DNA of 64,000 bases. It comes from Psammoneis japonica. Lineage: Eukaryota. The DNA is taken from assembly GCA_008632985.1 (NCBI GenBank), contig QPGO01000067.1:196142-260141 (forward strand). Reading direction: 5' to 3'. Positions 39-64,000 of this stretch are shown piece after piece. Below the pieces are notes generated by a model that worked only from the letters and a program-made list of their open reading frames with translations, did no database searches and was not told where the DNA came from. Made by a program: the position numbers and the translations under genes. The first letter of the stretch is position 1. Every line of letters begins with the position of its first letter.

Positions 39-69
<31 letters not shown>

Positions 70-76
70 GGGGGGG
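38..76. repeat. (GT)n microsatellite followed by a poly-G run
   Basis: tgtgtgtgtgtgtgt followed by more than 20 G. Confidence 0.9.
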
Positions 77-329
77 ACAGGTGGCGATGTGAAACAAGTG
101 CAAAAGAACACACAAGCAGGACTTTGGCAGTGCCTCTGGGGCTTGTGCAGTGCCATTCCTTTTCTGTCAGAAGGTCCAGCCAGAGGGTGCCAGCACTGGG
201 CCAAGATGACAACTTTGCAGCTTTGATGAAGTTTGCTTGCCTGGGGATGTGTTTGCAGTTTGCTGGCCTGGGGATGTGTTTGTGAGGCTGACTCAGCAGC
301 AGCTCACAGAACAAGAAGAGTTGACAAGC

Positions 330-3720: not shown

Positions 3721-4246
3721 AGAAATGTCAATGCCTGAAAACAAAAGTTGGAGTTTGCATGTTGAGAAAGCAGATGACGAGCCCAATGATGCAATCTTGA
3801 GTGCCATTTGAGCAGCCAGAGTGAGATGGACATTTTTGTGAAAATTTGAAGCAAGGTTTTTGACAAAGCAACACACAGGGTTTGTTGTGGACACAACAAC
3901 TTGGATTGACAAACAGAAATGTGGGACTTGTGTGAATTTGAGGAACATGCTTTTCAAAACGATTTTTTTTTTTCTTTCATCACACGTCTCTAGCTAGCTA
4001 GAGTAGAGAGGCAGCTGCAGAATGATCAGGCACCACCCCTGTGGGCATGAAGCAGATCAGATGCCATTCTTTTTGATGTTTTTGAGGTGAGGTTAGATTC
4101 GGTGCAGCGCAGCAGCAGTTCGGGTCGCTTTGAGCGTGTGCGACGAGCGCGTGGTGCCGTTGCGTTGCGTGATTTTGAATTTGCTTCGTCCGCCCGCCCG
4201 TCGAACGAACGACGCAGCAAAAAACAGGGTGAAGTTCGAGTCAACA

Positions 4247-7229: not shown

Positions 7230-7895
7230 GACAAAGAAAGAACTAAAGAAGTACAGGTATACAGGAAGGATGGGAGATTGACGCCCAAAGAAGACGCGAT
7301 TGAAGCCAGATACAGTAGAAGAAAGAGAAAATAATGAGAATGTGAGTACCTTACCGCCAGAGATCGCATGGTGGGGCTTCATCGACTTCATTCTTGTTCG
7401 TTCATTGGCCTCCAATCGATTCATTCGATTCGATTGAAAAAGATACTTTGTGAAGCTCAATCGCCTAACACGAATATTTGGAAGTACTGTAAAAACGATA
7501 CTGCACAGGCTCTGCACCTGCCGATTCACATGGCGTTATATTTTTATATATGAAAATTAAGATTCAATTCGAAATTTCATATCATTCAGTATAGATGGAA
7601 GAGACCACATTATTATTAAAAATTTGTATATTATATATTGTGAGTACGACCCACAGAAATTGCCGTACTGTTACACAAGACTGCCACGTCATCAAGCAAT
7701 TTCGCATCGCGTTGATCGCGAAGAAAAAAACCAAAAAAAAAAAAATAATAGAGTCTGCGTTTGTTCGACGGCAACGAACTGCAACCAATCACATTTGCCA
7801 TTCCGCGCACCTTTTCTTCAAATAGTATATGCTAAGGTGACCTTCGAATTGATCCAGAGTTAGGACGTCAATGTCATTAGTTAAGAATTGAGAAA

Positions 7896-17926: not shown

Positions 17927-18681
17927 GCTGAATAATCAGAAGAGGTGAAGAAAATGCTACCGGTATCACGAAGAATTCTTGCACTTGAACTGCAAGAATA
18001 CCCCTGCTACAGCTATATATATTCTTTCATCCTACAAAGTAAATCCTAGATAGATAGACTACTGCTTATATGATTGAGCTAAGCCCCATACCGGTACCGG
18101 CGTTATCAATTACAGTAGTAGACCTGACGACTGAAAGTTTGTTGGAGTCTCGGATGCACTTCGTCCTGCCGCTGGTAGGATTTCTACAGGTTTCTCTCCA
18201 CTTCTGTATCTCAGACCGAATTTCGTACTCTGTTTTATTCTCTACAAATCTATCAATGCAAAGTTCATCTATATCTGCAACTCGCAAATCATAGAGCATT
18301 TGTAATCTGCGTTGTCAAAAAGTGAGGCAAACTGACAAAAAATGGGCTCTTTCAATCCTCTCGCTATATATTTTATTCATACCTTTTGATGGCCATTTTA
18401 TTATATATTCTCAACGGTTCAATCATATAAAATAAAGATCCAGAACTGAGTATTTTATGCTGCATGTGACCACGTTCCAACAAAATTTGGATGGTATTTC
18501 CTGTACGGCGTTGATCGAACAAAAGCAAATGATATATTCGGCTCTTAATTATTATAACTGAATATCGTCTATTGAGATCTGAAAATAGATAACTTTTTTC
18601 GCAATGTCACACCGCCATTTTACGAACGGCTCTCGTCGCATCATCATCGCATAAAAATTTTCTTCGACAGAGTTAGGGACA

Positions 18682-40071: not shown

Positions 40072-40584
40072 GGATGCTGTTGCTTCAGCAGCAAGAGACG
40101 ATCGACGAAAACGAATGACCGCATGAGCTCGCGATCTTCGATTTTGCATCTTGCCCGCGCGCGCTCAAGTGTGCAGAACATGTCATTGATCATGATTAGG
40201 CTGATATTCTTCAAAACATACCATTTTTGAAATTTTGGCAGTTTAACTATTAGATGTCTATTTAACGACAGTCATCCGTTGAGAGCACCTGCCCTTCTAA
40301 CAATTCAGCCGTTGAATCGATAATAAACTATAGTTCTTAAAATAAATATGATGGGTTTTCGCGCCTTATTTGGAGTCTTATGAACGAATAACACGTATGT
40401 GTGTATCAATTCACGGCGAAACTCCACCCACTAACTCGGAGCCAACCGCCAAATTTCAAGTTGTTGTTGGCTGTTATCAAGCGAGCCACCTCTATCATTG
40501 TTTTTCGAATTGAGCAATCCGGGGTCGGTACGTCATTAAAATTACACAACACTTTACACACACACACACACAAATTATTGAACA

Positions 40585-42342
40585 ATGACGATGATTGCGG
40601 TACGTTTCGTCTTGGCCTGCTGTCTATTGATGAGCCAGGTCACGTCGCAAAGAAGACTTGGGGCTCCTGCCGACGACTCGCTAGTTTCAGATTTGGCAAA
40701 GTTCTGCGACGAGCAAGAAAAGGCTGCAATGGAAACCGAAATATCAGTATCTGACTCTACAATGCGCTTTAACAACAAGTGCATGTGCGGGTTTCTAAAG
40801 ACTCCGCATGAAGTATTGCCAGAGTCGGCTGCTGCGAAAACTGTCACCCTGGGTGGAGACAATGGCATGTCGTCAATGACAGTCTGCTCGAACGGCTTTG
40901 CCAGGGATGCTGGTAGCGGACAAGCGTATCCATGTAAAAACGTTGACCTTTTGGCTCATATGAGTAACCAGCAAGTCAACGGAGCTGTTGAGCCCAACGG
41001 TATCCTGAACGATATCTGGGGTTGGACTGACCCTAAAACAGGAAAAGAGTACGCACTTGTCGGCACCTATTCAGGAACTGTCTTTGTCGACATTACGATT
41101 CCGGGGTCCCCCGTAAATTTGGGCAAGCTTGTCTCTCATGCAGGAGGTAAAACATCCTGGCGAGACATCAAGACTTACGGCAACTACGCCTATGTCGTTG
41201 CCGAGACACTCAATCATGGGATGCAAGTCTTTGACCTAACGAGACTTCGGAGACTTTCAGGAAGTCCCAAACGCACCTTTGACGCCGATTTTCACTACGC
41301 TGGTTTTGGAAACGCGCATAACATTGCCATCAACGAACAATCTGGCTTTGCATACGCGGTCGGTACAAGAGCTTGTGAAGGAGGAGGAATGCACATTATG
41401 AATATTAAGACTCCACGATCACCAAAATTTGCAGGATGCTTCAGCAAAGGGTATGTTCACGATGTGCAGTGCGTGATCTACTCCGGACCTGACTCGCAAC
41501 ACAATGGTAAAGAGATCTGCTTTGCTTCAATGGCAAGTCGAGTTATGATTGTGGACGTAACAAACAAGAGCAACATGATTGTTCTATCCTCAACCTCATA
41601 CCAACTGAGTGACAAAACGTACACGCATCAAGGTGAGTTGTGTCACGTACTACGGTATCTGCCCTTGTTTGAGTCACTCTTTCCTCACTTTTTTTGCCTT
41701 CACTCGTAACTAGGTTGGCTCACCCAGGACCAAAGATACTTTGTTTTCGGAGACGAGACGGATGAGACAGAGTTTAAAGTCCCAACTCGAACGTACGTGC
41801 TCAATGTTCAGAATTTGGATAGTCCTTTCATGGCGAACAGATATGATGCGCGGACGGGCGCCATTGATCACAACCAGTACATCAACGGCAATTTCGTTTA
41901 CCAAGCAAACTACCGAGCTGGTCTCCGGATTCTCGAAATGACCGGTGCCAGATTAAATGAGGTGGGATACTTTGATATCTGGCCCGGCGACGATGCACCT
42001 GCATTTAATGGTGCGTGGTCGTCGTATCCATTCTTTTCTTCCGGGACAGTTATTGTCAGTGGGATCGAGCAAGGGCTGTTTGTCCTCAAGCCGACAGTTG
42101 GCCCGTCACAAATTTCTCCGAAATCCATCAACTGCTCTACCATTAAGCGATCATCCGCATGCCGCAGTCAAAACGGAAAGTGCGTTTGGAAGCGGATATG
42201 GTGTCAAAACACAGACTCGAGTGATCTCTCATCCGTGCCATGCGAAGAGCTCATGCATAGGCAAGCTTGTGACAGTCAATGGCAAAGGTGTCTGTTCGAA
42301 TATACGCTTGGTGGATCTTCCTGTGTCACTAAGTCGCCCTAG
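40585..42342 (+). CDS. Secreted choice-of-anchor B (LVIVD beta-propeller) protein, paralog 1, with C-terminal Cys-rich repeats
   Basis: YPCKNVDLL, NDIWGWTDP.TGKEYALVG, SWRDIK, HGMQVFDLTRLR, AHNIAINE, GYVHDVQCV.Y.GPD, YTHQGW, AIDHNQY, YQANYRAGLRIL, GAWS.YPFF.SG. Intron 41633-41713. Confidence 0.9.
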
Positions 42343-42479
42343 TGAAGATAGTTCAGAGCGTTGTCGCGCCACTCCCAACGTGAGAGGCTTAATGTTAATA
42401 TAACACCGATAGTCACATGCAATAGTCCTCTTCTGTAACTAGAGTATAGTGCGGTAGTCCTAGCGATGCATGTCGTCAA

Positions 42480-45400
42480 AAAAAATCTGGGAGGGGGGGG
42501 GGGAGCTTTGCCCGCGAGGCCCCTCCATGAAATTCGAAAACATTTGGCCACAGAAGAAATGCCGCCCCCCCCCACCCCATTGCCCGCAGCAATTCCGCAT
42601 GTGTGAAAAATCGAAATTGCCAGGCCAATCTCTTGTCAAATTTTTTTTTCATCAGCACCAAGAACGTTGTCGCGCAGAAACACTTTTGTCATTCCTTTTC
42701 AAGAAATGAAGGTCAGAGGCAGCATTGAAGCATCTCATCACAATGCTTGTCCTCATTGTTGTGCCCAATCTTCAGCCACCCCCAAAGCCAGTCATGTCAC
42801 TTCTTGAAGTGAAAAGACGGCGCAAAAGAACACACTGAATTGACGGAATGGGTTGACAAACCATGCCCAGCAACAGGTTGAATAAATGTTGAAATTGTCT
42901 GTTGGCCACAAAGTGGGCCTTGTGCAGCTCTGATTGTCTGCCGGAACAACAGCAGGTCAGCTGTTTCTGTGTCATTGCCTCCATGAGCCACATGTCTCAA
43001 ACCCCACATGACCCCCCTGGCCGGAACAATTTGGAAGAATTGGCCAAATTTTGACCCCCTGGTCTAGAGCCACAAAATGCGCACAATGTGATGGTTGTTG
43101 GTCTCTTGCACTTTTGGCCAACATCTTGTGAGAATGGAGCAGGTGTGCAGTGTTCATTGAACCCAGTCAGTGCATGAAAAAGTCGTGTCATCTGGTCATG
43201 ACACAGCCAGGCTGTGCTCTTCATGCAACATCTTTGCAGTCACCCAAGTTGAGCCAGTCTCTTGGTTCACACCATGTGGGCACAAATGTCTCCTCCTTGC
43301 ATTTTGGCTGTTGCACACATGCACTTTGTGGCGCAACACTTGTCGTGTGTGTGTTTTGCCAGAGCACACACAGCACCCATTCATGGAATGCCCGTTTCCA
43401 CTCACTGTCAAAATTCTGGCTTAAACCCAGATGGGTGGAATTCTGAAGTTCAGCCAGAGCTCTAAAAACAAGGTCCATGTTTTCAACTTTGATGCAATTG
43501 ATTTTGTGTCAAGAGGGGAAGTTGCAATGAAGCCCACAGCAACACAACAAAACACGCGCAAGCAGCAGATGCACAAAACAACACTGGCACTTGTTGATGA
43601 TGTCACCACTTTGGAGCAAGATGTTTTGCTGCTCATGCTCCATGTGCAAACAGGCCACAAAGTCACCTTTGTTTCATCACACAGAATTGGCCTGTTTGTG
43701 TGCTGATTGGATCTTGCCAAGAGACTTTGATGTGCCAAAATCCAGGAGCTGGCCTGGCCAGAATGTTCATTTTGGCCATTGTTTCTCATGTCATTTTTGC
43801 ACATTGGAGATGGTGGATTTGAGCTTTTCACCAGGGGCACTTTGCCCCCAATGTGCTGCAGATTTGTCAATTGCACAAATGAGCTGCAGTCTCACAACAC
43901 TTTTGTGAGTGTGGCAGTTTGGGGAAGACACTTGTGGGCTCCAAAACAGGTCTGATCCTTGTGAGACAAAGCAATGATGGTTTTTTGGGTGTGGTCACAG
44001 ATTTGGATCTGCGGGCTTCTAATTTAAGCTCACGTTGAAGGCAGGCTTGCCATTTTCTTTGAGTGACACAAGCTGGACATTGCATTGAGCAAACAGCATT
44101 GGGAAAAGGAGCAAAGCAATGCTGAGCACCTGTCAGTGGCATGGAGTGCCAGAAAACTGGGCTGCTTCCAGAATGACAGCTGCTCCCTGTTGCAAAGTTA
44201 GAGACATCTGTGATCATTTTTCTGGCTTCTTGGGCCAAACAGAGTTCATGTGCACCACTTTGCACACTTCAAGCTCTGGGCTTGGGTGAGCCCCAGCTGA
44301 GAAGTGCAATTTCTCATCCCATCCATGTGAGAGGCCACATGTGTGCAACAGCACAGAGCTCTTTTTTTGTTGCTCTCATTTTGCCCCCCCCACACATCAT
44401 TTTGCCAACTGAAGCTGCTGTGTTGGTTTGAAGCTGATGAGCCCCTGCCTCCCCTCTCTGAAGCAAGTTTGTTTGAATCCAGACCCACCTCTCCTGTCAA
44501 CCTTGACAATGGTTCTCCTGACAGCTCCCCCATTGCTGGAAGTGGTCTTACCCCCCTCCACTGCTGCCAATGCAGCTGCCGCCAATGCTTGCCATTGTGT
44601 GTTGTTCAACAATGATGGTGTGTCAGCCCTCAGCAAGGACAGAGCCCCTCAGATGCTCCTGAGTTCATTGTTGCTGATTCTCTTGAGGGTGCTTTGAGTT
44701 TTCCTTCAATGTCACATTGGGCAGATGTCACATCACCTCCCTCTGTTGGTGCTGATTTGTCAGGACATCCCTCATTTGATCCTGAGAATCCACTCAGACC
44801 CACCCGTGAGCTTGCACCCGACAAGGACTTTGACACACCTCCAGTTTGCTCACCAAGCATTGCACTCTTGGTGCAACTTCTCCATGTTTGTTGTTGTTCC
44901 GGCATTGCAACAGGCTTCATTGACAAAGTCATGAGAACAATTCATGAGGAGCACACTGAAAAATGAGTTGATTTGCTTGGATGCTTGAGTGCCTGTTCAC
45001 ATGCATGAACAATGTGCGCAGACATTCTTGCCATGATTGGAAGCAAATGTTGCACATGCACTGTCAGCAGCAAGCTGGTTGCCCACAAACCAACCAACTG
45101 GCAATTTTCTCCTGCATGCATCGTTGGCTCCAACAGAACTGCCAATGCAAGTTTGCACTCACTTCCTGGGAAAGAGGAGTGTCAGTGTCACTCTCTGCAT
45201 TGCCGCCTTTTGACTCAGAATGATCCACGCAGTCTCATTTCTGCCCACTTTCACAGGAGGGATGAAACCCAGGTGTTCTGGAACAGCTCACCAAAAAATT
45301 CCCTTCCTTGGATTCTTGGTCTGTCTTTGCCTCCAGGAACAGATCATTGAAGCATTTGATGCCCATGTCTGTCCAAAAATCTCTGTCTTTTGGGGTCCAT

Positions 45401-46435
45401 GCTGTGCTGAGGTGTTGCTGGCTCATCAGGTGGCTGTCTTTTTCCATCCTTCTTTGGCTGGTCCTTTCCCACTTCTCTTGCCAAACATTCCAGCAGCTCT
45501 CAAGTGTGGCAAGGCACAAAGCCTCATCACTCACTGTGATGAGGTTCGCCATCTTCTCCTGTCCTGCCTTGATTTTTTGCCACCCAGTCACATCACACTC
45601 TTGACAAACACAAGCACATTCTCAAGGAACCAGCAGTGCACATCCCTGTTTTTCCTCTTCTTCTGCACAATTGAGCCCCGTGTTGAGCGGAGGACTTGTT
45701 CTTGGTGCTTGCTGTTTGCTGAGTCTCTTGTTCTTAGGGTGGTGGTTCTTTCTCTTCAAAGCTGCAGTGGGGACAAACCAGAAGAACATGCTGGTGACTG
45801 CACCAGGGAAATTCGCCAAATCCATCCACAATGCACTGTGCCTTTCATCATGTTTTGCATCACCCACTGTGTCACCATGCTGTGCTTGCCATTGATTGTG
45901 TTGGTGACGCATCAACAGGCTCAACCCTCCCACATCCCCTCCCATTCCTTCTTGTCATGCTTGCCTCCTGCTGTGTTCCTGTGTGTCAACCTGCTCACCT
46001 TCCCCCACCAGAACTCTGTCTGTGCCAGAAACTTTGCCTTTGGGAAGAGCAAAGTCCTCGTCACGTCCCAAACTGTTCATTGTGAGTTCTTGTGGTTGAC
46101 GAGGTGCCTGTTCTTTGCATTGCCGCCTGGAGGCGTGGACTCAAAGGTGCTGCCGCCACCCTTGTGTTGCTGGTCAACCCCCCAGTGGGCACACCCAGAC
46201 ATTAGTGTGTGCAGCCTGCATGGCAAGAGAGCTGATGCCCTCATCAGGTGCAGCACACACCCTTGTCTTGCATTGCATGTTGAGGGAAACCCATTTTCTG
46301 TGTGCTGTCTGGGCCCCTTTTGGTCCTTTTCCCCATTGCCTGCAGTGACCGACTTGTGGCATCGTTGCGATCCAACAACATCAGGACATGGCATGGACTG
46401 CACTTTCTTTTTTGGTTGAAAGGTGGGCGAAGTCA
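42480..46435. mobile_element. TpA-depleted hypermutated block B: degenerate repeat-like sequence and gene fragments
   Basis: About 10 TA in ~3950 bp by manual scan. Minus-strand remnant ITVSDEALCLATLESCWNVW...WTDMGIKCFNDLF..AK.DQ (45235-45591). Element class not identifiable. Confidence 0.65.
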
Positions 46436-46554
46436 AAATACCATATTATCTAAATAATAGGGAAATAGAAATGGGTTCTATATAGAACATAATACAGTTG
46501 CAGCCCTTCTTCGCACTTCCATTCCCAAATTCCTTCATTCCTTGATTCTTCTCG

Positions 46555-48695
46555 TTACATTTGCAGCCTCATGTCGTAGTCCTTGTATGCGAACGTCTTG
46601 GACTTCTTCAGGGTGATCGGCATCCTAACCTTGCCGGATTGGCACTCATAAGCTATGACGAGCTCGGGTTTTGGCAGCAACTGGTCGACTCCTGGCATCT
46701 TGATGTCCTGTCTCATGTACACACAGGAGAATTTCTTCAGGGCCTTCTTTTCATTATCGTGGTGGTCCTTGTTCCAACGGTTGCAAATGCTCCTCGAGAA
46801 GTTGATCACAAGGTCATCCCGGCCCTTCCAATCTGGCTGCTTCAGCATTTTTGTGTTGTACATGAGCTTGAAAATGGCCTTGTACTTGGGCATCTTGCTT
46901 ATCGCTGCGGGTTCGACACGGCTCAGCTTGTAGATGTGGTTGGTGTCGGGGTCAACGTCAGGGTTCGAATCTGGCAGGTACGTTTCCCACATAGCCATCT
47001 CATCATCCGTGGCGTAGATCGGTGGGCCTGGGTCCGCGTTCAAGAACTGGTACCGGAACAGGTCGATCTCAGTCCCGTCCTCAAGCACACCCGGCATCAG
47101 AAACCAACCGTCACCGAAACTGATCTTGCCGAACATCCCCACCGCTGCTTTAACCCCGTCCAATATGCCACCTTCGTCTGCAGCGGTGTCCAAAGCTTCT
47201 TCTTTTTGTGCTTGAGGGGATAGAAATCCTTGAGGTTGCTAGGAATGATGATCCACAGTAGCATCACCAATGGGACGGTCCAATGGAGGAACTGCACCCT
47301 CACGAAACGATCGGCCTTCACGATCATCGATTCGACCACGGAAGATGACGGAGATGGGTTCTTCTCCCCTTCTTCCTCTTCCACAGTTTTGTCTCCATCC
47401 TCTTTGTCGTCCTTCAGCAGATCGACCTTCCAGTTGAACGGTTTTGATTCCCAGAACGAACCGGGGAGCATCGTTAACCAGAACACCATGCAGTAGTGGG
47501 GGAACAAACCGAGCTCCATCCCGAGGATGAACCCGAGGTGCAATGAGAGGAAGCTAAAGGCAGCAATGTACCTCATGAGCTTGACCTTGTACGGGACATA
47601 CAGGAGGATGGGCCCGGCGTACTCCAAGATCATCGTCGCGTGCGTCAAACTCCACCACACGGGTTTGTAAATCCGGATCAAACCGGCGAACGGCTCCTTC
47701 TTGTAGAGTTTCTTCTGCATGACGAGGTACACGGCATTCCCGTTCAGCCACAATGGTTCCCGGTGGTGTTTGATGTCCGCCGAGAAAAAGTACAGGCTGA
47801 AGAGCTGGAAGACCATGCACATCGTCGCGCCGTTGATGATCCTCGACGACGCCAGGCGGTTCTTCGCTTTGAGGGCCGGGTCGAGGATCGAATCGAACGA
47901 CCACAGCGCGTTCGATGGCATAAACAGCATGTATATCAAAAGGTGGACAACGACCCGGTCCCCGGCGTTGTCACACTTGAATACCCTTCGCTGCAAACAA
48001 ATATGACAAAATAAAAGAGCAGACAATCAAAGGGAACAGAAATTTGATTAGGACCGCCGTTCACGCCCCAACAAACTTCCCGATTAAATCAGTGTAAATG
48101 GAAATTGAACAAGCCTTTTCCTTACCTGGAACGACAGCTCCAAGATCCATAGTAGGATGTTGGCGGATTTGGTGTAGTACCCGCACAGGAACATCAGGGC
48201 GGCGACGACCTCCAACAGCAAGCAGAAGTATGCCCACGCGTCGCTCTTCGACACGAACAGGACGCTGATGATGTTCTGGTCAAACATCCCGTTTTCGGAG
48301 TGGTGGAACCTCACAAGGTCCTGCGGATAAATCCCCGATTCCAAGTAAAACATCTCGAACAGGTCGTACCTCCCGTAGAGCCGGACCAGCAAACACAACG
48401 ACACCAGAATCCGGACGACCGTGACCGACCGGACGTCGACCGACAACATCTCCTTGCAGTTCTCCCAAACGTTCGTAACGAACCCTCCACTGGTATCCAT
48501 GGTCACGGTCGCACTGCTAATCGCATTAGATGGGGCGTCGTCGGGGACCGGTTCCGACCCGGCTTTCGTGTCCGCTCCGTCGTCACCATCATCGATCTCA
48601 CCAACATCACCATCGTTGTCATTTTCTTCTTTCTCTTCCTTCTTTTCCTCCTCTTTCCACAACAGCGTCGTCGTCTCATCATCGTCGACGCCCAT
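46555..48695 (-). CDS. HTTM-domain (vitamin K-dependent carboxylase-like) membrane protein
   Basis: DVRS..VVRI...FY.ESGIYP, NAGD, WSFDS, LYFFSA..K, W.NGNAVY, LTH....LEY..P, LHLGF..GMELGLFP, GLKQRW(G)MF. Intron 47991-48125; 1-bp slip at ~47140. Confidence 0.85.
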
Positions 48696-48859
48696 CGTGC
48701 TGCCCTACAGTATACTCGGTGCTTGCGAGAGATACAGGCACAACTTCTGCAACAAGATGCTTTCAGCACAAAGCGTACAAGTTTAGTCGTGTATTATTTG
48801 AAATTTTAAAGAATTTATGGAAATATTTGGGTCAACGGTCGCGGCCGTTATTTGGTAAC

Positions 48860-51800
48860 GTTTGACAGAACTTGATGCTCCCAATCACGCCCCAGCAGAA
48901 AGACTCGACCATGACATTTTGCAGTTTTCCCCACCAGCTGCCAAGAAATGCCACATCCATCATGAACCTGATTGGTCCATTGAACTTGCCGATCTGAGAT
49001 GCTGGGTGCACATCTTTCAAAGAACTGGGCAACAACAAGATTCATCATCTCTGCATCACGCACACACACAAAGCAGACTTCCAACCAATCTTGAGTGTCA
49101 AGTGCTGGTGTGCCTCAGCTCAAAAAATGGAGAAATGTTGGTCATGTAATCCAGGCATCTATGGTGCTCATCCCTTCACAAATGCCAACACTCCCATTTG
49201 TCTCACAAAGAAATGATGCCAGAAATCAGCAGAGCTTCTGGTGAGACCGCGCCATCCACAGCAACAATGGCTGCACCTCTTGTTGCAACCACAACATTCC
49301 CTCTTTAGTTGCAATTGAAAGCTGCAGGGCAGCAATGGCGTGCCAAAGGAAGTTGCTCAAGTTGCTAACTCCATGATTCACGAGGCTTGTCATTGGCTGC
49401 CAAACACTCGCTTCATGACAAAAGAGCTGTTGGAGGTCCAAAGGATGGTGATGCACACTGTGCTCACAAAGTGTGGACACAATCGCAACACAAAATGCAA
49501 CATTTCATTTTGTTCATGCTCATTGGGAGGCAGGGGTTTCAGGTCTTTGGATGTGGAATGGGAGTGGCACAGACTGCACAGTTTCTTCAACACTGGCAAG
49601 ACTCTGGGCAACCACAAGCATTGTCTCAGATCACGGTCGCATGGACTCAATTTCAACTTGGCACAGAAGTCAGCTTCCTTCAAGATGTTGACACCAAATT
49701 GCCTCATTCCGAATCTCATTGGTCCATGTCTCTTCATTCCTTTTTGGTCAGGATCAAGGTGCACGTTGCCTTTGACAACACTGGCATGTTGCCTTCACAT
49801 CGGGGCAATGATGGACACATCATGGATGTGGTGCTGAGAGTCGTGCGCATCCACTGATCAGGAGATCTGGTGGGCAAATCATTGTTGATTGCATTTGAAC
49901 ATTTTGACATTGTCAGATGTTGCTTCACCGGATGGCACGTCTGTCAACAAATTTAAAGTCAATGGTGGACACTCTCTTCTCAGCAGCTGGCCAACTTTGA
50001 ATCTCATCGAAAACAATCCCACCCGTCTGCCAGGGCCTGGAAACACTGGCACGATGCATGTTCCCTTTTCTGCAAGGATGACTCATTGGAATTGAGCCAT
50101 CCATCAGGTCAGTGGGCAGGGCCGGCCACCGAGATGTGGGTGTCTCATGCAGCACACCACGAGCCATCGGAGGACTGCTTGTGCATTTGCACAGATTCTG
50201 GTTTTCAGACATTCCCAGTGATTGACAGATGCGCTGCTGTCAGTGGCTGCTTTGGAGACAGTCCCAGACATGTCCCCTGCAGCATCCCTGGTGTCAGCAA
50301 ATGCCACCCACACTGGCCATTGGCAGATGACTTCCTTGGGTGCACCGGTTCCCCCACCGTCCACCACTCCGGTTCCCAACAACTTCATGGCAATGTTGCA
50401 ATTGCTTCCTGGATGGGAGTCCTTGCTGTTCAAAGAGTTGGCTTTGCACCTGTCCATGTTCAACATTGCAGACCTGCTGGTCCATCATTGGGCTTTAGCA
50501 GGCACTGTTGGATTGGTTCTTCACTTTCAGGGTGCACTCGGTTGGACACTCACAGTTGACAGGACTCCAGTGGTGGATTGTGCTGGCCAGGTTTTCGGTT
50601 TTCATCTGTCATCCCATCATGCTGAAGTGCATGAATTGTTGTCTTTCCTCCATTTCCTGCTTTGATTGATGCAACATTGTTGCAGAACATTTGCCAAAGG
50701 TGCGGACCTGCACTGTGACAATTCTTCCTCACTTGTCCACCACAGTGTTTCCAATTTTTAGTCATCCCCCAGTCCGGCAGACGATGAGGCCATTCAAGGT
50801 GCCAGGGACTGTCATTGTTGACATCACACTGCAAACACTTTTTCCACAGATTGGGACATCTTGCATGAGACATTTCACTCCATGAGACAAATCTTCGAAA
50901 TGTCTCATGACGAGCACACTGGTGCCAAAGTTTCTGTCCACTGGGTCAAGGGACACCAAGATGACACACCACCCACAGAATCCTTGTCCCTGGCAGCTCA
51001 GTTAAATGTTCAAGCTGACAGATTGGCAGGACAATGCCAGGGCAATTTCTCTGGTGACACCCTTTTCGTGCCTCTCATGCCCCACTGCAGTGCCAATCTG
51101 ATTGTGCAGGGCACAGCCATCTCGGCCAAGTGCAAGCCAGTCATCCAACATGATGCATCCAGCCCAGCTCTGGCCAGTTGCATGAGGGAGAAGTGTGGTT
51201 GGTCCAACAAAGTCTGCAAATCGATTGACTGGGACATGCATGCCAAATTGATGTCTCAAAACATCCGCAGGAAAGTCAACACCATCAAGCTGGTGCAGGA
51301 CCTTCTCTCGACAAACAAAATTGTCCACCAACACAGCCCCACCCATCCAGATTGTTGCACACACTGTCAAGATCCAATGGAAGACAGAGACCACATTCTG
51401 CACTGCCCACACAATGAAGCTTGGCACCAAAAATTTTTACAGGGTCCACGCAAGAAGTGTGGTGACATTCATGCATCCCCTTCCTTGCATGATTTGCTTG
51501 TTTCAGCTGTGGAGTCATGGTTCCAAGAGGAGCCACTTCATTCTGATGACCTTCACCACAGCGTGGTGTCTGTGTTCCTGTCTCAGGAGCAAATTGGATG
51601 GCGTCTGTTGTCAAATGGACGGTTGACTTCTTCTCCAAATTGTGGAATGCGACAGAAACTTCGCATCTTTTGTCAAGCAGCACTTGTCAGACGCTCTCCC
51701 CACAAGAGAAAAGATTAGACTGGGCGGCTGCCATTGGCAACTGTGTTTGGGAGCAGTGGTGAGAGTTGTGGGACAAACACAATGGCGCAGTTCATGGGCA

Positions 51801-52430
51801 CGATGTGGAAACAAGGAAGTCCTCTCAGCATCGTGATGCCGAGGCAGAAGTGAAAGCTGTTTTTGTTCACGATCAGATGATTGCTTGGCAAGAGACAAGA
51901 TGCATCTGTTGGATTTGGTCAAAGAACACTTGACACATTTGACACATCATCTCCGCAATTGGCTGGCCATGGTCAAGCCAGTGTTCAAATCGAGCATCTC
52001 AGAGAAGCAAAACGGTTTGCTGCCAGAGGTGCGAGAACCATTGCAGGTCATTTCGGTGCAGCATTGCCCTCGGGTGACTCCAACTCTGGCCAATCACCAC
52101 ATGCTCCTGCTGCATCATCAGTGCGCTGGGGGTGTGGGTTGGCTTGTTGCCGGAGCTTCAGGGTGGAAGCGGCGCAGCAGCACTTCAAATGCAGATTTTT
52201 GGTTTTGTTTTGTTTTGATCCAACAACCATGAACCCGCTTGTCCATGAAGACACGGTGCATGTGTTTGGTGATGAATGCACTCCTGATGGAGGACATGAT
52301 GGGATTTTATGCCACAGGTTGCCGGGAGCTTGATGACAGATGGGTTGAGAAGGTTGATCCAGGAGCACCTTGCTTGAGCGAGCACGTTCTGCACACATCT
52401 GCAGCAGAAAGCCATGAACTTCAACTTCGA
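48860..52430 (+). mobile_element. Hypermutated non-LTR retrotransposon (LINE) relic with RNase H and CCHC zinc knuckle; TpA-depleted block C
   Basis: SLGGRGFRSL (post-RT), HWVKGHQD..LSLAAQLNVQADRLA (RNase H), IDW, CTHCQDPMEDRDHILHCPH, QEQIGW...NGRL. About 11 TA in ~3570 bp. No Tyr in the 285-aa ORF 50861-51718. Confidence 0.85.
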
Positions 52431-52711
52431 TGACGTAATTACACACCAGTAGAAATCTACGTCTGTAACATATGACTACTGTACTGTAGTTATATACCTA
52501 CAGCCAGCATCCTTCGATACACTACCTAAAATAGTTCGGATTTGTGGGGATTCCAGAACGGCAAGTGCTTGCATACGGCACGGGTCGGTCGGAGGTCGGC
52601 ACTTTGAACTTACTACTCTCACAGATGATGATAATAAAGTTGTTCGATGTTCAAGCACAACATCATTTTTTTAGTTGAGCAATCCTATCGGCACTTACAC
52701 AGACACACACA

Positions 52712-54457
52712 ATGACAACGAGTACGGTACGTTTCGTATTGGCCTTCTCCCTATTGAGCCAAGTCATGTCACAAAGAACACTTGGGTCCACAACTGACTC
52801 GCTAGTTTCAGATTTGGCGGAGTTTTGCGACGAGCAAGAAAAGGCCGCAATGGAAACTGAAATCTCAGTGTCTGACTCTACAATGCGCTTCAACAACAAG
52901 TGCATGTGCGGGTTTTTAAAGACTCCGCATGTAGTATTGCCAGAGTCGGCTGCTGCGAAAACCGCCCTCGTCGGAGACAACGGCATTGTAGCTGCAATGA
53001 CATTCTGCTTGAATGGCTTTGCCAGTGTCGCTGATGGGGAATCGTATCCATGTAAAAACGTTGATCTTTTGGCTCATATGAGTAACCAGCGAGTCAACGG
53101 AGCTGTCGAACCCAACGGTATCATGAATGACCTTTGGGGTTGGACGGACGAAGTAACAGGACGTGAGTATGCACTTGTCGGCACCTTGTCAGGAACTGTC
53201 TTTGTCGACGTTACGACTCCGGAGACCCCCATAAGTTTAGGCAAGCTTGTCTCTCATGAAAATGTTACAACACTGTGGCGAGACATCAAGACTTACGGGA
53301 ACTACGCCTATGTCGTTGCCGAGACAGACAATCATGGGATGCAAGTCTTTGACCTAACGAGACTTCGGGGACTTTCTGAAGATCCCGACCTCATATTTGA
53401 AGCCGATCTTCACTACGCTGGTTTTGGAAACGCGCATAACATTGCCATCAACGAACAATCTGGCTTTGCATACGCGGTCGGTACAAGAGCTTGTGCAGGA
53501 GGAGGAATGCACATTATGAATATCACAGACCCACTATCACCAAGTTTTGTAGGATGCTTCAGCCAAGGATATGTTCACGATGTGCAGTGCGTGATCTACT
53601 CCGGAGTTGACTCGCAACATAATGGTAAAGAGATTTGCTTTGCTTCCATGGCCAATCAAGTTAAGATTGTGGACGTAACAGACAAGAGCAACATGATTGT
53701 TCTATCCTCAACCTCATATGAAGATAGCAACAAAACGTACACGCATCAAGGTGAGTTGTGTCACGTACTACGGTCTCTGTCCTCTTTTGAATCCCTCTCT
53801 CGCTTCTGTTGGCATCATTCGTAACCAGGTTGGCTCACCCTGGACCAAAGGTACTTTGTTTTCGGAGACGAGACGGATGAGATAGAGCTTAAAGTCCGAA
53901 CTAGAACGCATGTGCTCAATGTTCAGAACCTGTCTGATCCTGTCATGGCGGACAGGTATGATGCGCGGACTGACGCCATTGATCACAACCAGTACATCAA
54001 CGGCAATTTCGTTTACCAAGCAAACTACCGAGCTGGTCTCCGGATTCTCGAAATGACCGGTGCCAGTTTAAACGAGGTGGGATACTTTGATATCTGGCCC
54101 ACGGACGATGCGGCTACATTTAATGGTGCGTGGTCGACGTATCCGTTCTTTTCTTCTGGGATTGTTATTGTCAGTGGGATCGAGCAAGGGCTTTTTGTCC
54201 TCAAGCCGACAGTTGGCCCGCAAAATCCTCCTCCCTCGGGACCCAACTGTTCTGGCATTACGGGAGCATCCGAATGCGGCAGTCAAAACGGAAAGTGCAT
54301 TTGGAAGCGGATATGGTGTCAAAACACAGACTCGAGTGATCTCTCAACCGTGCCATGCGAAGAGCTCATGCATATGCAAGCTTGCGACAGTCAATGGCTA
54401 AGGTGTCAGGGAGAATATTCGCTTGGTGAATTCTCCTGTTTCACTAAATCGCCCTAA
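52712..54457 (+). CDS. Secreted choice-of-anchor B protein, paralog 2 (close duplicate of 40585-42342)
   Basis: Same motifs and long identical nucleotide tracts. Intron 53751-53828 at the same position. Upstream and downstream flanks are also homologous. Confidence 0.9.
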
Positions 54458-54699
54458 GTGAAGATAGTTCAGAGCGTTGTCACGCCACTCCCAACGTGGG
54501 AGTTTTAATGGTAATATAACACCGATATATGGTTACGATAGTCCTCTACTGTAGCTAGAGCAGCGATGCGAGTCGTCAAATAATAATGAACGGGTAGTAG
54601 GGCCACATGCGACAACCCCCTTCCCGAAATTCTGTTAGCCATGTGGACAAATCGAAATTGCCGTGTGCCAATCAATCTTTCGACCACCGCCAAAACACT

Positions 54700-55690
54700 G
54701 TTTTCGTTCCTTTTCAAGAAGTGAAGATAAAGATCTTGGGTGGCATTGCAGCATCTGATCCTCATTGTGGCTCTCATCAACATGCCCAAACTTCGGGCCC
54801 TTCGACACAATGGGACAAAAAAAACAGTCACATTCTTGGTGTGAAAAGATGTTGCAACAGAGAGTGTATCAAATCACTGGAACAGTGGGCTCACAAATCA
54901 TCCCCGGCAACAGGATGAAGTGTTGCCTGCTCGTCAAGAGTGACAAAGTGCAAAAGAAGGTGCTCGCTGAAGTTGGTTTTGGGACAAAAACACTGCTCAC
55001 AGTGTGTGAAAGAGCCCAGGTGCAGAAAAGGATCATGATCCAACCTGCCACAGAAATCAGCACAGCACCTCCAATTAATGCTGTGAACCAGATGGGCCAA
55101 CCACCTGGGTTCCAAAAGAGCTCTCAGGCCTGACTTCCTTTGCAGCGCTGTTGCAGAAAATGAAAGCAAAAGCAGCTTCACAAAGAGGGGTGTGTTGGAG
55201 CATTCATTTTCTCTCTGCCCCAGAAGGTGGCAGATTGCCAAGTTGCTTCCAATGTGGAGCCGCATTCCATGGGCTGCTGCCACTTTGCTGGAAGAAGCCC
55301 CCCCACGCGACAAATCCTGTGTGCTTCTCAGCTCTCACACACACCACCAGATGATTTTGTTCTGCCAACAACACCTTTGCTGGAGTCGATTGCTCACCTG
55401 TCAGTCTAACAGATGTGGTGGATACCTTGACTGACACGGAAGAAGAGCACCACTGAATCTCAGTGCTCGGCACAAACAAGGGCAGCCATTTCGGGGCTTG
55501 GGCCTGCCCCGAGGAGTTGCCTCCTTCTTCCATTGTGACCCTGGAACCTTTTCATCAACACATGGATAAATCCCCACAACCCTCCACAGCTCTGGTCTTC
55601 GGAGGGCAGGGTTTTCTAGGATCCTTGTCGATGGGGCAATGGGTGCAAGGCAACAAGGCCATTCAAATTGGCTTGCGGCACGCTTCTGCT
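54700..55690. other. TpA-depleted block D (less complete); left end homologous to the start of block B
   Basis: About 6-7 TA per kb, CA/TG-rich. 54560-54800 aligns with 42460-42780. Confidence 0.7.
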
Positions 55691-55877: not shown

Positions 55878-57622
55878 ATGGCATTGAAAACTCTGCGTTT
55901 CGTAATTGTGTGCTCGTTACTCATGGGCAAGAAGCTTTCGTTAAGTTTGAGTATTGCGTCTATCGTAGAGCAGCAGATGACTGAATACAGCAAATATTGC
56001 AATGATCAAGACACAAAACAAAAGAAAAATGCAGCGACAGTCGCGGATTCAAATGAGCGCGTCAACAACAAATGCATGTGTGGGTTTGTAAAGACCCCGC
56101 ATATAGTTGAGTCATCGTTCTCCATCCTTCGCACCGATAGTTCGAACGGCGCACCACTTGCACCTTGCGTGGGTGGTTTTGCTGGTCCTTTTCCTTGTTC
56201 GAATGTCGATCTCCTCGCATACATGAGTGTTCCGCAAGTGAATGGGGGTGAAAACGGGACATTGAACGATGTCTGGGGCTGGGAAGACCCTCAAACAGGA
56301 CGCGAGTATGCACTTGTTGGTACAGTGTCAGGCACGAGCTTTGTAGACATTACACACCCACACGATCCCAAGATTTTGGGCAAGCTTCCGACAAACATGA
56401 ATCAAACGTCGTATTGGCGCGACATCAAGACTTACAATGATCATGCCTTTATCGTTGCCGAGTCGCCTACACATGGAATGCAGGTATTTGATCTTACGAA
56501 ATTAAGGGGATTGCATACTTCTACCGACCTTCCAATTGCTTTTGAAGCGGATGTAATCTACAATGACTTTGGGAGTTGTCACAATCTCGCGATTAATGAA
56601 GAGACTGGTTTTGCATATGCCGTGGGAACTGATACTTGTTCAGGAGGACTGCACATGATTGATATTATGGATCCGCAGTCGCCGCAGTTTGCTGGATGTT
56701 TTGGTGATGATGGATACACACACGATGTTCATTGTGTGACGTACAACGGCAGCGCCGCCATCTATGTTGGTCGTGAAATTTGTTTTGCATCAAATACAGA
56801 CAGTGTTACCATCGTTGATGTTTCAGAGAAGGCCAATCCTGTTATGGTATCCAGAACGACATACACAGGCAGTAGCGAAACCTATACGCATCAAGGTTTC
56901 GCTACGGATGATCACAACTATTTCGTATTCGGAGATGAAGCAGATGAAGAGAAGCTTGGTGTTCCAACGACAACACTTGTACTCAATGTCATGGACTTGG
57001 ATAGTCCGTTCATGGCAGGTTCACATGTTGCATCAACTCGTGCTACGGATCACAACCAATACATTAAGGGAAACCTTATATACCAAGCAAACTATCGCGC
57101 TGGTCTCCGGATTTTAACATGACCGACATTTCTCAAGGCAGCTTGGAGGAGCTGGGATACTTCGACATCGTTCCCGAAGATGATGATGTTATGTTCAATG
57201 GAGCTTGGTCTACTTATCCTTACTTCAACTCTGGCACCGTCATTGTAAGTGGGATTGAGCAAGGGCTATTCATTCTTCGACCTACTGGGATCTTAGATGC
57301 TCGGACACAGACACCAACACCAGCACCGTCAACAACGCCGACCTTGTCCCCGACTTCTCTTTCAGCCGCTCCAACAAACATTCCCACGTTATCGCAAACG
57401 TCTCCTCCGACAAACTCTCAGTTTTCTCAACCTATAATTACCGACACGCCCTCCACTTCACCCACCGCTACAACTCAAAGACCCTCGACTGGTACATCAT
57501 CTGCATTTGGTCCTATAGGGTGTCCACTGTTCACCGATTATCCGTACGTCTGCGGCTTCGTTTCAAGGTGTCAATGGGACAGCGATTCCGGCACTTGCGG
57601 ACCTAAGCCATTTGGAAACTAA
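55878..57622 (+). CDS. Secreted choice-of-anchor B protein, paralog 3, with Thr/Pro/Ser-rich linker and Cys-rich tail
   Basis: FPCSNVDLL, NDVWGWEDP.TGREYALVG, YWRDIK, DGYTHDVHCV, YTHQG, ATDHNQY, GAWSTYPYF.SG. No intron at the HQG site; 1-bp slip at ~57117. Confidence 0.88.
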
Positions 57623-59843: not shown

Positions 59844-61095
59844 ACTTGACGGTGGTGGTCAGATTTCAAATTCTGAGCAATACAGAAATGTCAATGATGA
59901 ATAAGGATTTTTGATCGCTTCTGCCGTAAATGTCATTACGCCAATGCCACTCTAGTGAATACACAAATGAATTTGTATTCCATCCTTTTCCTGAACTTTG
60001 ATCTATCGGCATTTTCGATACGAGTATACGCGATGACAACAATAAGGCATGCTTGTATGTGTCATGGCCATAAGCTGTGAGGCGTACCGTCACATTTGGA
60101 TTGAACTCGGGGATCTTGATGTCGAAAGTAGCCATTTGTTTGACATTCGTGATTTTTCATCGCCCACAAACTGGGATTTCAACTGAGTCGAGTTGATGTT
60201 GGACGTGTTTCAAAGCACTGCGTTTGATGAAACAATTGAGGGCTCTGGAATTATGGCATTTTATGCCATGGAGACTTAAAACAGTAAATGGGTTGACAGT
60301 CAAGCAGTGATCGGGTTTGCCAACATTTCCAAAAATGTGACAAGCAACAAAAATTGCATCACTCAACAACCAACAACATCTCAAGAGACAGAAACAAGAA
60401 AAGTGACTCCTCTTTGCACTTGAATTAAAAGAGACAACAATGCACAACAAACATTTGAGAAGGACAAGAACAAGCTCTTGAATGCATGAAACAAGAAGAG
60501 AGTCAATGAAGCAATCACTCTTGTTTCGAACCTCTTGACCTGTTCTGTCCATGATGGTGGTTGGTTGAGAAAGGTTGGTGGTGGTTTTTTGTGTGACTTG
60601 CAGCTTGAGGCATGTTGATGCATGAACACATTGGTGTCACCTTTGAAATGTGCCACTTGTGGAGCTTGAGTGGACAGCTCTCTGTGCTCAAGCTTTGTCC
60701 ACCAAATGCTCCGTCAAAGTCCAGATGCTGCCCGCCCCCCATCCCACCCGACCATTGACACAAAACAGTTCTTGCAAAATGTTGTTGCCTGTTTCCCTCT
60801 TCCTCTGCAGAGCAGCTCTCTTGGTGACAGTGCTGCCCACATCCCAGAATGTGCTCAAGAATGCTTTCTAACTTGCCAGCCAAGACACCCAACTCGGGGC
60901 TGTGTGGGCTCAAATCTCTCTCAAGACAAGCTGACATTTGTGCCTGGCACTGGTGGCAATGCTGAGCCCTCCTTCCCATTTGACTTCCCAGGAGTGTGCC
61001 CAGACCTCCTGCATGCCAGGTGGCTCAACCACAAGAGTCGCCATCTTTGCCAGCTTTGTCAGCAGGATGTGCCAAGGCTGCTCTGGCCATGTGTG

Positions 61096-61337
61096 CACCT
61101 GGCTGGCACCACAGTGCAAGGACAGCTGCGACAGCACTTTCTGCTGTCAGCAAAGAGTGTGAGCTGGCTGGACTGCCCAACCCCACACTTCACAGCTCCT
61201 TGGCAGTCACTCTAAATCATGTGCCAACTTGGGGTCAACCACACCTGGCTGGCTGCAATGCAAAGACAGCTGTGGCAGCACTTTGTGGCAGAGTGTGAGC
61301 TCCTGGCTGGGCTCCCAACCCCACACTTCACAGCCCC
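61096..61337. repeat. Two diverged ~100-bp direct repeats inside block E
   Basis: cacctggctggc...gacagctg...cagcacttt...agagtgtgagct...ggctgg..cccaaccccacacttcacagc at ~61096 and ~61240. Confidence 0.8.
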
Positions 61338-62249
61338 TCAGCAATGGCTCCCAACCAAATGACAACTTGGGACCAATGGCTGTGAAGTGCCATTGTTTCA
61401 AATTCCTGTGCCTGGCCCCTCACACAGCTTTGCACAGGGTCAACATGTGTGTGTGGCCTCTTTGCAAGATGGGCCCCTGGCTGGCTGCTGACTCAGCCAC
61501 GGCTTGCAACAAGAAGCCACCACAACACAGAGCATTGTGGGGTGAGTGCAGCACAGCTTGAACAAGCAAACCATGCTGAGATCACCCAGAGTTGGCTGCT
61601 GTCCTGGGGCTCCATTCAAAGCTGAGCTGGGCTGCTTGGCTCCTTGGTGTGCAGCACATGCTTGGCATCACATTCTTGTCGCCAAACAGCCACATGGCAT
61701 GTGCCCACCATTTGTGTCTGCAACAGCGACCCCAGTCACAAAGAAAAGGTTGAACCTGCTTTTGTGGTTGAAGAGTGAAGAAACTGTGAGCGAAGTTGGG
61801 TTCAAGATTTGTTGGCAATGCCAAGTGGGCAGCCAAAGAGAGGCACCAAAAATGGCTGTTCTTGCTCATTTCTCAAGAGGAGCTTGCACTCATGATGCAG
61901 GGTCTGAAGCAAGCACCAGTCAAGACAACAGTTTTTTCTCTCTGCCCCACTTGAAACACAGCCTTTGAGTCAATGTGGTGCTCCTTCAACAATTTGCACA
62001 CACTTGGATGAGCAGAGCTGGAGCCAGGGCAGCTGGCCTGGCAGGGCTTGGCTGACACCCAAGCTGGGCTGCTCAGCTTGGTGGCACACACTCAGTGTCA
62101 CATCTCTTTGCACCTGCAGCAACCACCCTGGACCAAAAGAAGCCAGTGCAACTCTGGCCCTGGTTGCATGGTCAATTGTGTGTGTGTTCAATGGTCGAAT
62201 CCCCTCTTTTTTTCTCTTTTCCTTTGACCGGCCACGAACATGAAAAAAT

Positions 62250-63800
62250 TGCCGAACTGCCATGGTTCCTACAACGCCTCGAGGAATTGGGCCCTCAACA
62301 CGGTGTCCGCCTCAATCGCTCCAAGACACACACACTCACCTCAATGACCGGCACCAGCCCCCTGCCAAACTTGCCCCCAACAAGTGCCAACGCCCTCCGC
62401 CAAGCCCTGCATTTCCTCAACCCTGCTGACGATCCTGCCCTGCATCCCGAAATCACCACTGGCCTCCGCTTCCTTGGCCAACCCATTGGCAGCCCCACCT
62501 TTGCCCACACCTGCCTTGAACAAAAAGCTGACACCTTCCACACCAACCTCAACAGACTCTCATCACACCTCCATGACACCCAAACCAAAAGCTCCCTCTG
62601 CCACACCTGTGCCATCCCATCACTCCTGCACCTGCTGGCGTCCGACGTCCACTTCAACTTCAACCCAGACAACCCACAACCCCTCACTTCCTGGACTTCA
62701 CCTTTCCAACAAGAGGTCCAATGCCACTGCGACACCTGCCTGCAACATCTTACAGTGCAACCACTGCCACTGCCACCGCACGCCACGCTCCTCGCCCACC
62801 TCCCAGCATCCTCCGGCAGCGTCGGCTGCCGATCCACATCCACCTCCACCATCCCCTTCCTCGTCTCTCAACTCACTCGCTCCTTTCGACATGCAACACA
62901 CGGACCGGTCACAGGCCAGGACAACCCCCTCAAGCTCCCACCTTTCTACGCTCGCTCCCTCCGCGCCTGGGCCACCTCCCGCCGCCCCTTGCACCTGTGT
63001 CAGGTCTTTCAACACTGCGGCAAAGCTGCTGCACACACTCTCGACCCCCCCCCCCCACCTTCCCTGAAAGCCTTAGTCAAAACGCACCCGCTGCGCAACC
63101 TTTCCCACACCCTCCATCATGCACACTTCGAATGCATGCTCGCAGACCTGCGCCTGCATGGACCATCGCACATCACCCATGCGCTCCCGTCCCCCTTCTC
63201 TCTCCACTCACAAGTCTCGCCCTCCACTCCCTTGCTCGCACGCTGCCTCAACAACGCCCAAACCCTGAACAGTTCCGCCTGATGCTACAATGCAAATTGC
63301 GGCTCCCCATCTTGCTGAATCAACTCGCACCTGCCTCTTGCCCCTCTTGCTCCGGCACCATCAACCCATGCGGTGACCATGCCTTTTGTTGTCGATCCCT
63401 CGGACACAAAACAACCATGTCCAACGCCATCCGCGACGGCCTCTGCGCTGCTTTCCAAACACTTGCTCCACTCTCCGGCATCTGTGCCGACTCTTCTGCC
63501 GCACACCATGAACCAACCAATCCAATGCCTCATTCACCCCTCAAACGCCCTGCTGATGCAGGCATCCAGCTTACCCCAGCCGCCTCTGCCGCCTCCCCTC
63601 TTGGCCACCGACACCTCGCCATTGACATCACTGTCCCTGAACCCCCCCATTGCCTGCTCCTGGCTTGCCTGCCCCCACTCTTAACCCTCACACTGAGACA
63701 CACCACACGAGCACAAAACGGAAGTTCAACGGAACCCACGAGACCCAACACGAAGCAACCCTTGCACCCGCCCTCAACAACGCCGGTGTTTTTTTCCCTT
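62250..63800 (+). mobile_element. Hypermutated CRE-like non-LTR retrotransposon relic (RT C-terminus, zinc knuckle, restriction-like endonuclease)
   Basis: G.RLNRSKT, GLRFLGQPIGS..FA, LP.SSG.VG.R, LRLPIL..CPSC....GDHAFCC, IRD.L, EP....KRPAD...LAIDITV (PD-(D/E)xK type). One Tyr in the 395-aa ORF. Confidence 0.82.
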
Positions 63801-64000
63801 TGCCATTGACCACCTGGGAGCTCCAGGCCACTTCACCCACTGCCTTCTTTTTGGTGCCAACCAAGACCTCCCCATCCCTGCTCCACCCGCCCCACCTTGG
63901 AACACTGAAACCTGTTTTCAACACCTGCTGCCCACGCCGCACATGACTGTGCCCAACAATCCCTGTCTGCCATCCTCCCTGCTGCCACCGCCACCTGGCA

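Follow-up and report, generated by a model that had tools for sequence, protein, structure and literature searches.

Residual TA sites in eroded DNA blocks of a probable diatom genome suggest a strand-wise TA mutator with a preference for certain flanking bases

Why do a few TA dinucleotides persist in DNA that has lost nearly all the others? The question is raised by a stretch of 64,000 nucleotides from Psammoneis japonica (assembly GCA_008632985.1, contig QPGO01000067.1, positions 196,142 to 260,141; hereafter, the window), which contains five blocks with sharp boundaries, A to E, that are eroded at both TA and CG (Table 1). A first-pass annotation of positions 42480-52430, that is, block B followed by a normal minus-strand gene and then block C, had sorted the residual TAs by their flanking bases (Y, pyrimidine; R, purine) and proposed that YTAR survives and RTAY never does. 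In this study, we found that the bias of the survivors toward YTAR is real and strong, and that it is best explained by a mutator that acts on each strand separately. All our counts refer to this single 64-kb window, in which the blocks were called from the position of each TA and from observed/expected dinucleotide ratios per kb; unless stated otherwise, "the blocks" means A, B, C, D, and E.

Each kilobase of the blocks holds 0-5 TAs (42-75 expected) and 4-20 CGs, and TG and CA are roughly doubled. The pooled observed/expected ratios are 0.04 for TA, 0.26 for CG, 1.83 for TG, and 1.73 for CA, as compared with 0.57, 0.99, 1.16, and 1.16 outside the blocks. Compared with the remaining DNA of the window, the blocks have 14-fold less TpA and more CpA. 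Loss of TA and CG together with a gain of TG and CA indicates that transitions turned both self-complementary pyrimidine-purine steps into TG or CA. Base composition and AC are barely altered, and the ratios of AA (1.22 in the blocks and 1.10 outside) and AG (0.99 and 0.97) stay close to those of the surrounding DNA. Since TA is the sole depleted dinucleotide ending in A, the affected adenine has a T at position -1. Moreover, in 62001-64000, within block E, the TA ratio has fallen to 0.07-0.10 while the CG ratio still stands at 0.5-0.7. Hence, the two processes are separable, and the one acting on TA is the faster. Of the eight internal block edges, six are sharp within a few bases, and the other two, on the right of D and on the left of E, are gradual.

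We then sorted the residual TAs into YTAR, mixed (YTAY or RTAR), and RTAY contexts. Counted in that order, block A holds 4/2/0, B 8/2/0, C 7/4/0, and E 5/5/0, which gives 24/13/0 for these four blocks (n=37). The earlier hand tally of 23/13/0 among 36 sites had the pattern right and was one YTAR short. The absence of RTAY does not extend to block D, which that tally had not included and where the counts are 3/2/2 (n=7) and the two RTAY sites are a GTAT at 54867 and an ATAC at 55423. Over all five blocks the counts are 27/15/2 (n=44), and in none of them is YTAR outnumbered by another class. In the normal DNA of the window RTAY is commoner than YTAR, the 1833 TAs outside the blocks comprising 309 YTAR, 942 mixed, and 582 RTAY sites (17/51/32 %). 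The contexts in A, B, C, and E depart from the background frequencies of NTAN (p=9e-15) and from an in-block first-order Markov null (xT*Ay; p=1e-5). They also depart from the frequencies of xCAy plus xTGy, the source tetramers of new TAs by transition, taken either within the blocks (p=4e-9) or from the background (p=3.5e-7). The R/Y grouping was picked post hoc, and significance survives correction for some tens of alternative groupings.

Reading each site on both strands, the 88 half-sites resolve the bias base by base. At position +1 of the adenine, survivors have A 43, G 26, C 11, and T 8 times, against A 803, G 746, C 1042, and T 1057 in the background (p=6e-11). At +2, A is enriched (40/88 half-sites, p=2e-4), and G and T are the rarest bases among survivors. 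No flank signal was found at +3 and +4 of these half-sites (p=0.65 and 0.75). As a control, the 240 CGs that survive in A, B, C, and E fall into 60 YCGR, 121 mixed, and 59 RCGY, with no class bias. Therefore, the context bias belongs to TA and not to the composition of the blocks. The surviving CGs of the five blocks show a mild effect of their own, being followed by A or T more rarely (134 and 100 half-sites) than by C or G (149 and 137), against 1714, 1382, 1247, and 1171 half-sites in the background (p=2e-5).

To describe these data we used a half-site model, in which the A of each strand is lost independently at a rate that depends on its 3' neighbour, and fitted it to all 16 tetramers. 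A one-shot form, for which the background served as ancestor, has decay constants of 0.52 for A, 0.90 for G, 2.21 for C, and 2.50 for T. This form gives 26.8/15.4/1.8 for the observed 27/15/2 (deviance 15.2 on 12 degrees of freedom) and is strongly preferred to a model with no flank effect (likelihood-ratio p=2e-11). A steady-state form, which sets creation from CA/TG against removal, yields relative removal rates of 1 for A, 1.7 for G, 8.9 for C, and 12.5 for T (p=2e-7). From an estimated 104 YTAR, 320 mixed, and 198 RTAY ancestral sites in the blocks, the estimated survival is 26%, 4.7%, and 1.0%, respectively. These values lie near the product rule for independent half-sites, which argues against a dimer that recognises the RTAY palindrome.

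The conversion products carry additional, largely independent information. A preference for TAY predicts that YTAY becomes YTGY and that RTAR becomes RCAR. The share of YTGY plus RCAR among mixed-flank TG/CA is 0.572 in the blocks versus 0.544 outside (p=0.048), and the skew is greatest at T..T flanks, which combine the best half-site with the worst. With the non-block DNA of the window as a proxy for the ancestor, conversion on the TAY strand has an estimated share of a=0.74 (bootstrap 95% confidence interval 0.59-0.92). TAY and RTA had been regarded at first as indistinguishable; provided that the enzyme is directed at adenine, the product skew favours T-A-Y over R-T-A. The identity of TAY with the tyrosine codon, to which the first-pass annotation had drawn attention, is a coincidence and not a mechanism. 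Homologues were also compared for changes of Tyr to Cys or His; the alignment of block E has six columns with Tyr in at least four homologues, at which the block has F, C, G, C, A, and H, an anecdotal result given so few columns.

Evidence that erosion took place in the chromosome comes from a duplication that was found by BLAST after collapsing all pyrimidine-purine steps. The first ~430 bp of block B share homology with the beginning of block D, and in both of them erosion starts at the homologous base. Immediately upstream of each lies a copy of the same host gene. The two gene copies are 86.5% identical over 1867 aligned bases and both have TA at 63 of the 98 TA-bearing columns; copy 1 has a weak match to the LVIVD repeat (E 9e-4, under the cut-off). 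Thus, D is a copy of the start of B, produced by a segmental duplication that took the neighbouring gene along. We scored a column with CA in one copy and TG in the other as an independent conversion of an ancestral TA or CG. Such columns account for 9 of the 60 pyrimidine-purine columns between B and D and for 5 of 418 between the gene copies (p=5e-6). In the three paralogue pairs within blocks, CA/TG doublets are the commonest class of difference (13, with no other class above 3). The excess of CA/TG columns between B and D, together with the spared gene copies, indicates that the process acted on chromosomal DNA after a duplication at the DNA level. Furthermore, the gene copies kept their TAs, so the process stayed within the element and left a freshly duplicated gene alone.

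Two further observations concern this duplication. At 54860-54870, block D keeps GTGTATCA, which includes one of the RTAY survivors, and the homologous positions 42840-42850 of block B read ACACACTG; this alternating pyrimidine-purine run has been converted in opposite directions in D and B. In addition, a third copy of the LVIVD-type host gene is located at 56062-57288 and is ~67-75% identical to the other two in the collapsed alphabet.

As to the origin of the blocks, a Pfam scan of 39 different block open reading frames (ORFs) gave none above the family cut-off, including the 7 ORFs scanned from block A and the 11 from block B. Homology searches were more informative for E and C. Residues 205-380 of the block E ORF at 62577-63809 match 149 library proteins at E<=0.001 (best 1.4e-25). 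Among seven of these matches that were scanned, RVT_1 is above the cut-off in three and just below it in one, upstream of the matched part. The ORF itself has a conserved Cys/His plus acidic C-terminal domain, with invariant columns C55, C58, G66, D67, H68, F70, C72, E112, and D127. The block C ORF at 50822-51718 has no Pfam family match of its own. It matches one protein, P0001 (database E 5.6e-5; pairwise E 7e-12, 24% identity over 233 amino acids), which carries RNase_H and zf-RVT matches, both under the Pfam cut-offs. By this match, the block C ORF carries the last part of an RNase H domain, along with a zinc-knuckle region. No other match came from a word-based protein search with the same ORF, and two metagenome scans, one with each ORF, found no relative. 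From their sequence relationships, blocks C and E are retroelement relics, and A, B, and D are probably mobile-element relics as well, by their likeness to the other blocks.

Some features of individual blocks deserve mention. Block A contains a diverged direct repeat (~331-942 and ~3179-3770, ~75% identical, with 9 CA/TG doublet differences), and its right edge (3990-4004) adjoins a short CTAG repeat (CTAGCTAGCTAG). Block E includes a ~140-bp tandem duplication at 61094-61371 (~76% identical by plain BLAST), in which the surviving TA at 61213 aligns to CC in the sister copy. The plus strand of 62001-64000 is strongly C-rich (GC skew -0.39 to -0.46, GC 59%), with 122 and 113 CA per kb as compared with 70 and 74 TG per kb; this imbalance may reflect a strand-asymmetric conversion or an unusual ancestral sequence.

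Altogether, the flank preference of a strand-wise TA mutator, faster if the A precedes a pyrimidine, is the best-supported reading of these data, and we consider it probable. In this model, the blocks would be mobile-element relics in a probable diatom genome, eroded in place over a long time by two processes. One would be the usual decay of methylated CpG, from CG to TG or CA. The other, faster and more complete, would convert TA to TG or CA, handling each strand separately and requiring a T directly 5' of the target A. Removal would proceed ~4-12 times faster with C or T at +1 than with A or G, and an A at +2 would protect further. RTAY, a good substrate on both strands, would vanish; YTAR, poor on both, would persist; and the mixed contexts would lie between. 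The lesion may be a deamination of adenine in DNA (A to inosine, read as G), and targeting may follow the silenced or methylated state of the elements. Methylation of the blocks is presumed by analogy with other diatoms, in which elements are described as CG-methylated through DNMT5a (PMC9998398). The TAY-preferring mutator of either strand suggested by the first-pass annotation is thus partly supported: it fits best, given the half-site fit, the restriction of the effect to +1 and +2, and the product skew.

Several points weigh against this reading. The data comprise only 44 sites, all of them in one window, and the evidence is the end state of a sequence, without sight of the enzyme, the lesion, or methylation. 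The steady-state fit expects 3.6 RTAY sites, as against the two observed, both in block D. The estimate of the product skew leans on gene-rich flanking DNA as the ancestor proxy, and the direct comparison reaches only p=0.048. Adenine-directed and thymine-directed chemistry leave an identical sequence pattern. Finally, if TAs were removed regardless of their flanks and the residual ones were all later products of C>T changes with a strong dipyrimidine bias (ultraviolet-like, at YpC), 51% YTAR, 49% mixed, and 0% RTAY would be predicted, from which the observed 24/13/0 does not differ clearly (two-sided p=0.14, one-sided 0.07). Creation at YpC combined with context-free removal of TA would also skew the products in the same way.

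This ultraviolet-like creation of new TAs draws further strength from the age of the blocks, as paralogues differ by ~6% transversions (48 of ~800 aligned bases) and new TAs must arise, and from the probable host, since diatoms live in light. Nevertheless, we regard it as quite unlikely. Among C/T differences outside pyrimidine-purine steps in three paralogue alignments, a 5' pyrimidine is present in 9/23, when 62% would be expected from availability. A 5-fold dipyrimidine bias would give such a result with P=1e-8, although the differences are undirected and the alignments old and noisy. In addition, the generic spectrum of TA creation is rejected by the in-block source tetramers, and more than the predicted half of the residual TAs in A, B, and C are YTAR. 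The same flank rule could also arise if the thymine of TpA were modified, for instance by oxidation of the TET/JBP type, and mispaired with G to give T>C at R-T-A, which in sequence is equivalent to A>G at T-A-Y on the opposite strand. Base J and 5-hydroxymethyluracil indeed occur mainly at TpA in kinetoplastids and dinoflagellates. However, the mutagenic effect of 5-hydroxymethyluracil is only weak, neither a thymine-modifying enzyme nor a modified base was seen here, and deamination covers both eroded dinucleotides with one type of chemistry; we find the thymine route unlikely.

The remaining alternatives carry much less weight. Editing at the RNA or cDNA stage before integration, by ADAR-like or APOBEC-like enzymes, would mean that the elements arrived already eroded, and it is true that C and E are retroelement relics and that the eroded edges match element ends. 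Yet B and D are copies made by DNA duplication and differ by the CA/TG columns described above, and this evidence of action in place excludes pre-integration editing as the principal cause. Both strands are, moreover, affected about equally (TG/CA per block 502/449, 455/428, 368/433, and 342/432). ADAR accepts an A at -1 and prefers a G at +1, but AA is untouched here and G at +1 is protective (26/88 survivor half-sites versus 746/3648 in the background), so ADAR-type editing of double-stranded RNA was rejected and editing before integration is very improbable. Patch repair that follows the deamination of methylated CpG in the elements, if done in an error-prone way by DNA polymerase eta, would account for the erosion of CG and TA in the same blocks, given that this polymerase makes A>G errors at WA motifs (W, A or T). 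It would, however, need A>G at AA as well as at TA, and AA is intact and AG is not raised. Since TA is also almost gone from 62001-64000 while half of the CG is retained there, polymerase eta was rejected, and we deem its involvement scarcely credible. In favour of chance, or of a side effect of block composition, one can cite the small number of sites and a grouping picked after inspection. The four nulls, two of them drawn from in-block composition, the unbiased CG survivors, and the agreement of all five blocks leave that explanation a negligible probability.

Compared with known systems, the closest likeness is found in the chlorarachniophyte Bigelowiella natans (B. natans). As described by Mettrop et al. 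(bioRxiv 10.64898/2026.01.13.699255), mutation-accumulation lines of this alga show a 1000-fold hypermutation of two integrated viral regions, with an elevated de novo rate of about 1e-7 to 1e-6 per site per generation. There, 230 of 231 de novo mutations are A>G or T>C, with all GC-biased ones at TpA, and the genome contains kilobase clusters poor in TpA and rich in CpA and TpG; reverse transcriptase and DDE domains are over-represented among TpA-poor coding sequences, and the editor proposed is an ADAT2 homologue (10.64898/2026.01.13.699255). The two cases share the dinucleotide target and its products, the limitation to foreign or mobile DNA, and the action on single-copy DNA, hence without induction by repeats. 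In our window, restriction to TpA is seen in the end state, from the loss of TA and gain of TG and CA with AA, AC, and AG unaltered. Confinement to mobile DNA is seen in the sharp edges, in the retroelement relics C and E, and in the normal state of the gene copies and of the gene between B and C. The cases differ in that changes in B. natans are almost exclusively AT>GC, with GC>AT not in excess, whereas CG is also lost here, most simply through a second, separate process; and in that the process was seen live in B. natans, whereas here only its end state is seen, in a probable diatom. The words CpG, flank, and context are absent from the main text of the preprint (10.64898/2026.01.13.699255), so that neither a co-located loss of CpG nor the TAY/TAR flank rule is reported in that main text. 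A literature search for TA hypermutation in diatoms, with most subscription journals outside its scope, found only this preprint.

Other systems resemble the pattern in part. In fungi, repeat-induced point mutation (RIP) likewise is a transition hypermutation limited to mobile elements, with sharp edges and destroyed reading frames. Unlike the process described here, RIP changes C to T at CpA or another CpN and so makes TpA, whereas TpA is destroyed and CpA raised in the blocks; RIP is also triggered by duplication, whereas the 1.9-kb gene duplicates keep their TA and CG (Table 1). RIP was rejected on both counts, the opposite direction and the spared duplicated gene. Decay of methylated CpG matches the loss of CG with a gain of TG/CA in elements only, but it covers only the CG half, and the loss of TA is more complete and can precede that of CG. 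Deaminase restriction of mobile elements with a context signature is a feature of ADAR and APOBEC in animals; the ADAR contexts differ as set out above, and APOBEC causes C>T, not A>G. With TadA and ADAT2 the process shares a U or T directly 5' of the target A, and native TadA, which depends on UACG (PMC12296453), has a pyrimidine at +1, as favoured here. T at +1 is at least as strong as C in our data, which fits UACG loosely and is not diagnostic. In contrast, TadA-8e keeps the UA requirement with no clear downstream preference in the same account (PMC12296453), and amphioxus ADAT2, the only ADAT2 for which that source gives measured activity on DNA, prefers GAA and TCG and not TA (PMC10354150). 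No gene for a TadA/ADAT2-type deaminase is present in the 64-kb window, and the link to a TadA-like enzyme is a guess with which the data would be compatible.

The hypermutation itself belongs to a type that was reported very recently from B. natans, a different lineage. New here, besides its likely occurrence in a diatom, are the rule for the flanks, the kinetics of the half-sites, the association with CpG decay, and the contrast with a duplicated gene that was spared. The signature has come near completion in a probable diatom, that is, in a different and ecologically dominant lineage. Any candidate enzyme would have to require T at -1 strictly, prefer a pyrimidine at +1 by a factor of 4-12, extend its footprint no further than +2, and act independently on the two strands. 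Over long times, the TA process has kept within the boundaries of the elements, and plain duplicates of genes are left alone. Blocks devoid of TA and CG escape Pfam, and such relics are likely missed or mis-called as genes in annotation. It is possible, though doubtful, that diatoms, like B. natans, run a DNA-level adenine-editing defence on silenced mobile DNA, acting on one strand at the motif T-A-Y not followed by A. If so, the process would be old and widespread in the stramenopile-alveolate-Rhizaria (SAR) supergroup, and the flank signature would offer a specific fingerprint for picking the deaminase among candidates.

Table 1. Eroded blocks and adjacent host genes in the 64-kb window
Feature	Coordinates	Strand	Description
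Block A	1-3990		6 TA and 22 CG in 3990 bp; open at the left end of the window
Block B	42462-46438		10 TA in 3977 bp, 8 of them YTAR; both edges sharp
Block C	48857-52435	+	11 TA in 3579 bp, 7 of them YTAR; retroelement relic
Block D	54599-55616		7 TA in 1018 bp; short, erosion less complete
Block E	60286-64000	+	10 TA in 3715 bp; relic of a reverse-transcriptase element; open at the right end of the window
Host gene copy 1	40583-42461	+	Directly upstream of B; TA ratio 0.63, CG 0.98; not eroded
Host gene copy 2	52710-54598	+	Directly upstream of D; TA ratio 0.66, CG 0.99; not eroded
Host gene between B and C	46546-48704	-	Long minus-strand ORFs; TA and CG ratios as in the rest of the window

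One ORF of the host gene between B and C was scanned and gave no Pfam match. Elsewhere in the window, 7881-12245 is occupied by an uninterrupted ORF of 1454 amino acids with three internal repeats of ~1 kb (8722-11685). It matches no Pfam family, and its protein-atlas features point weakly, with a fairly high score, to lipid-binding clusters of the JHBP/Grp7/BPI-like type. A further gene, at 18655-21008, carries a bacterial-type S-adenosylmethionine decarboxylase domain and a spermidine-synthase-like (aminopropyltransferase) domain in adjoining ORFs of one fused gene. This gene, by which the organism is judged most likely to be a diatom, has 196 relatives at E<=1e-10; the species-named matches are all diatoms, with 47-60% identity, and the relatives of at least 712 amino acids all have both domains.

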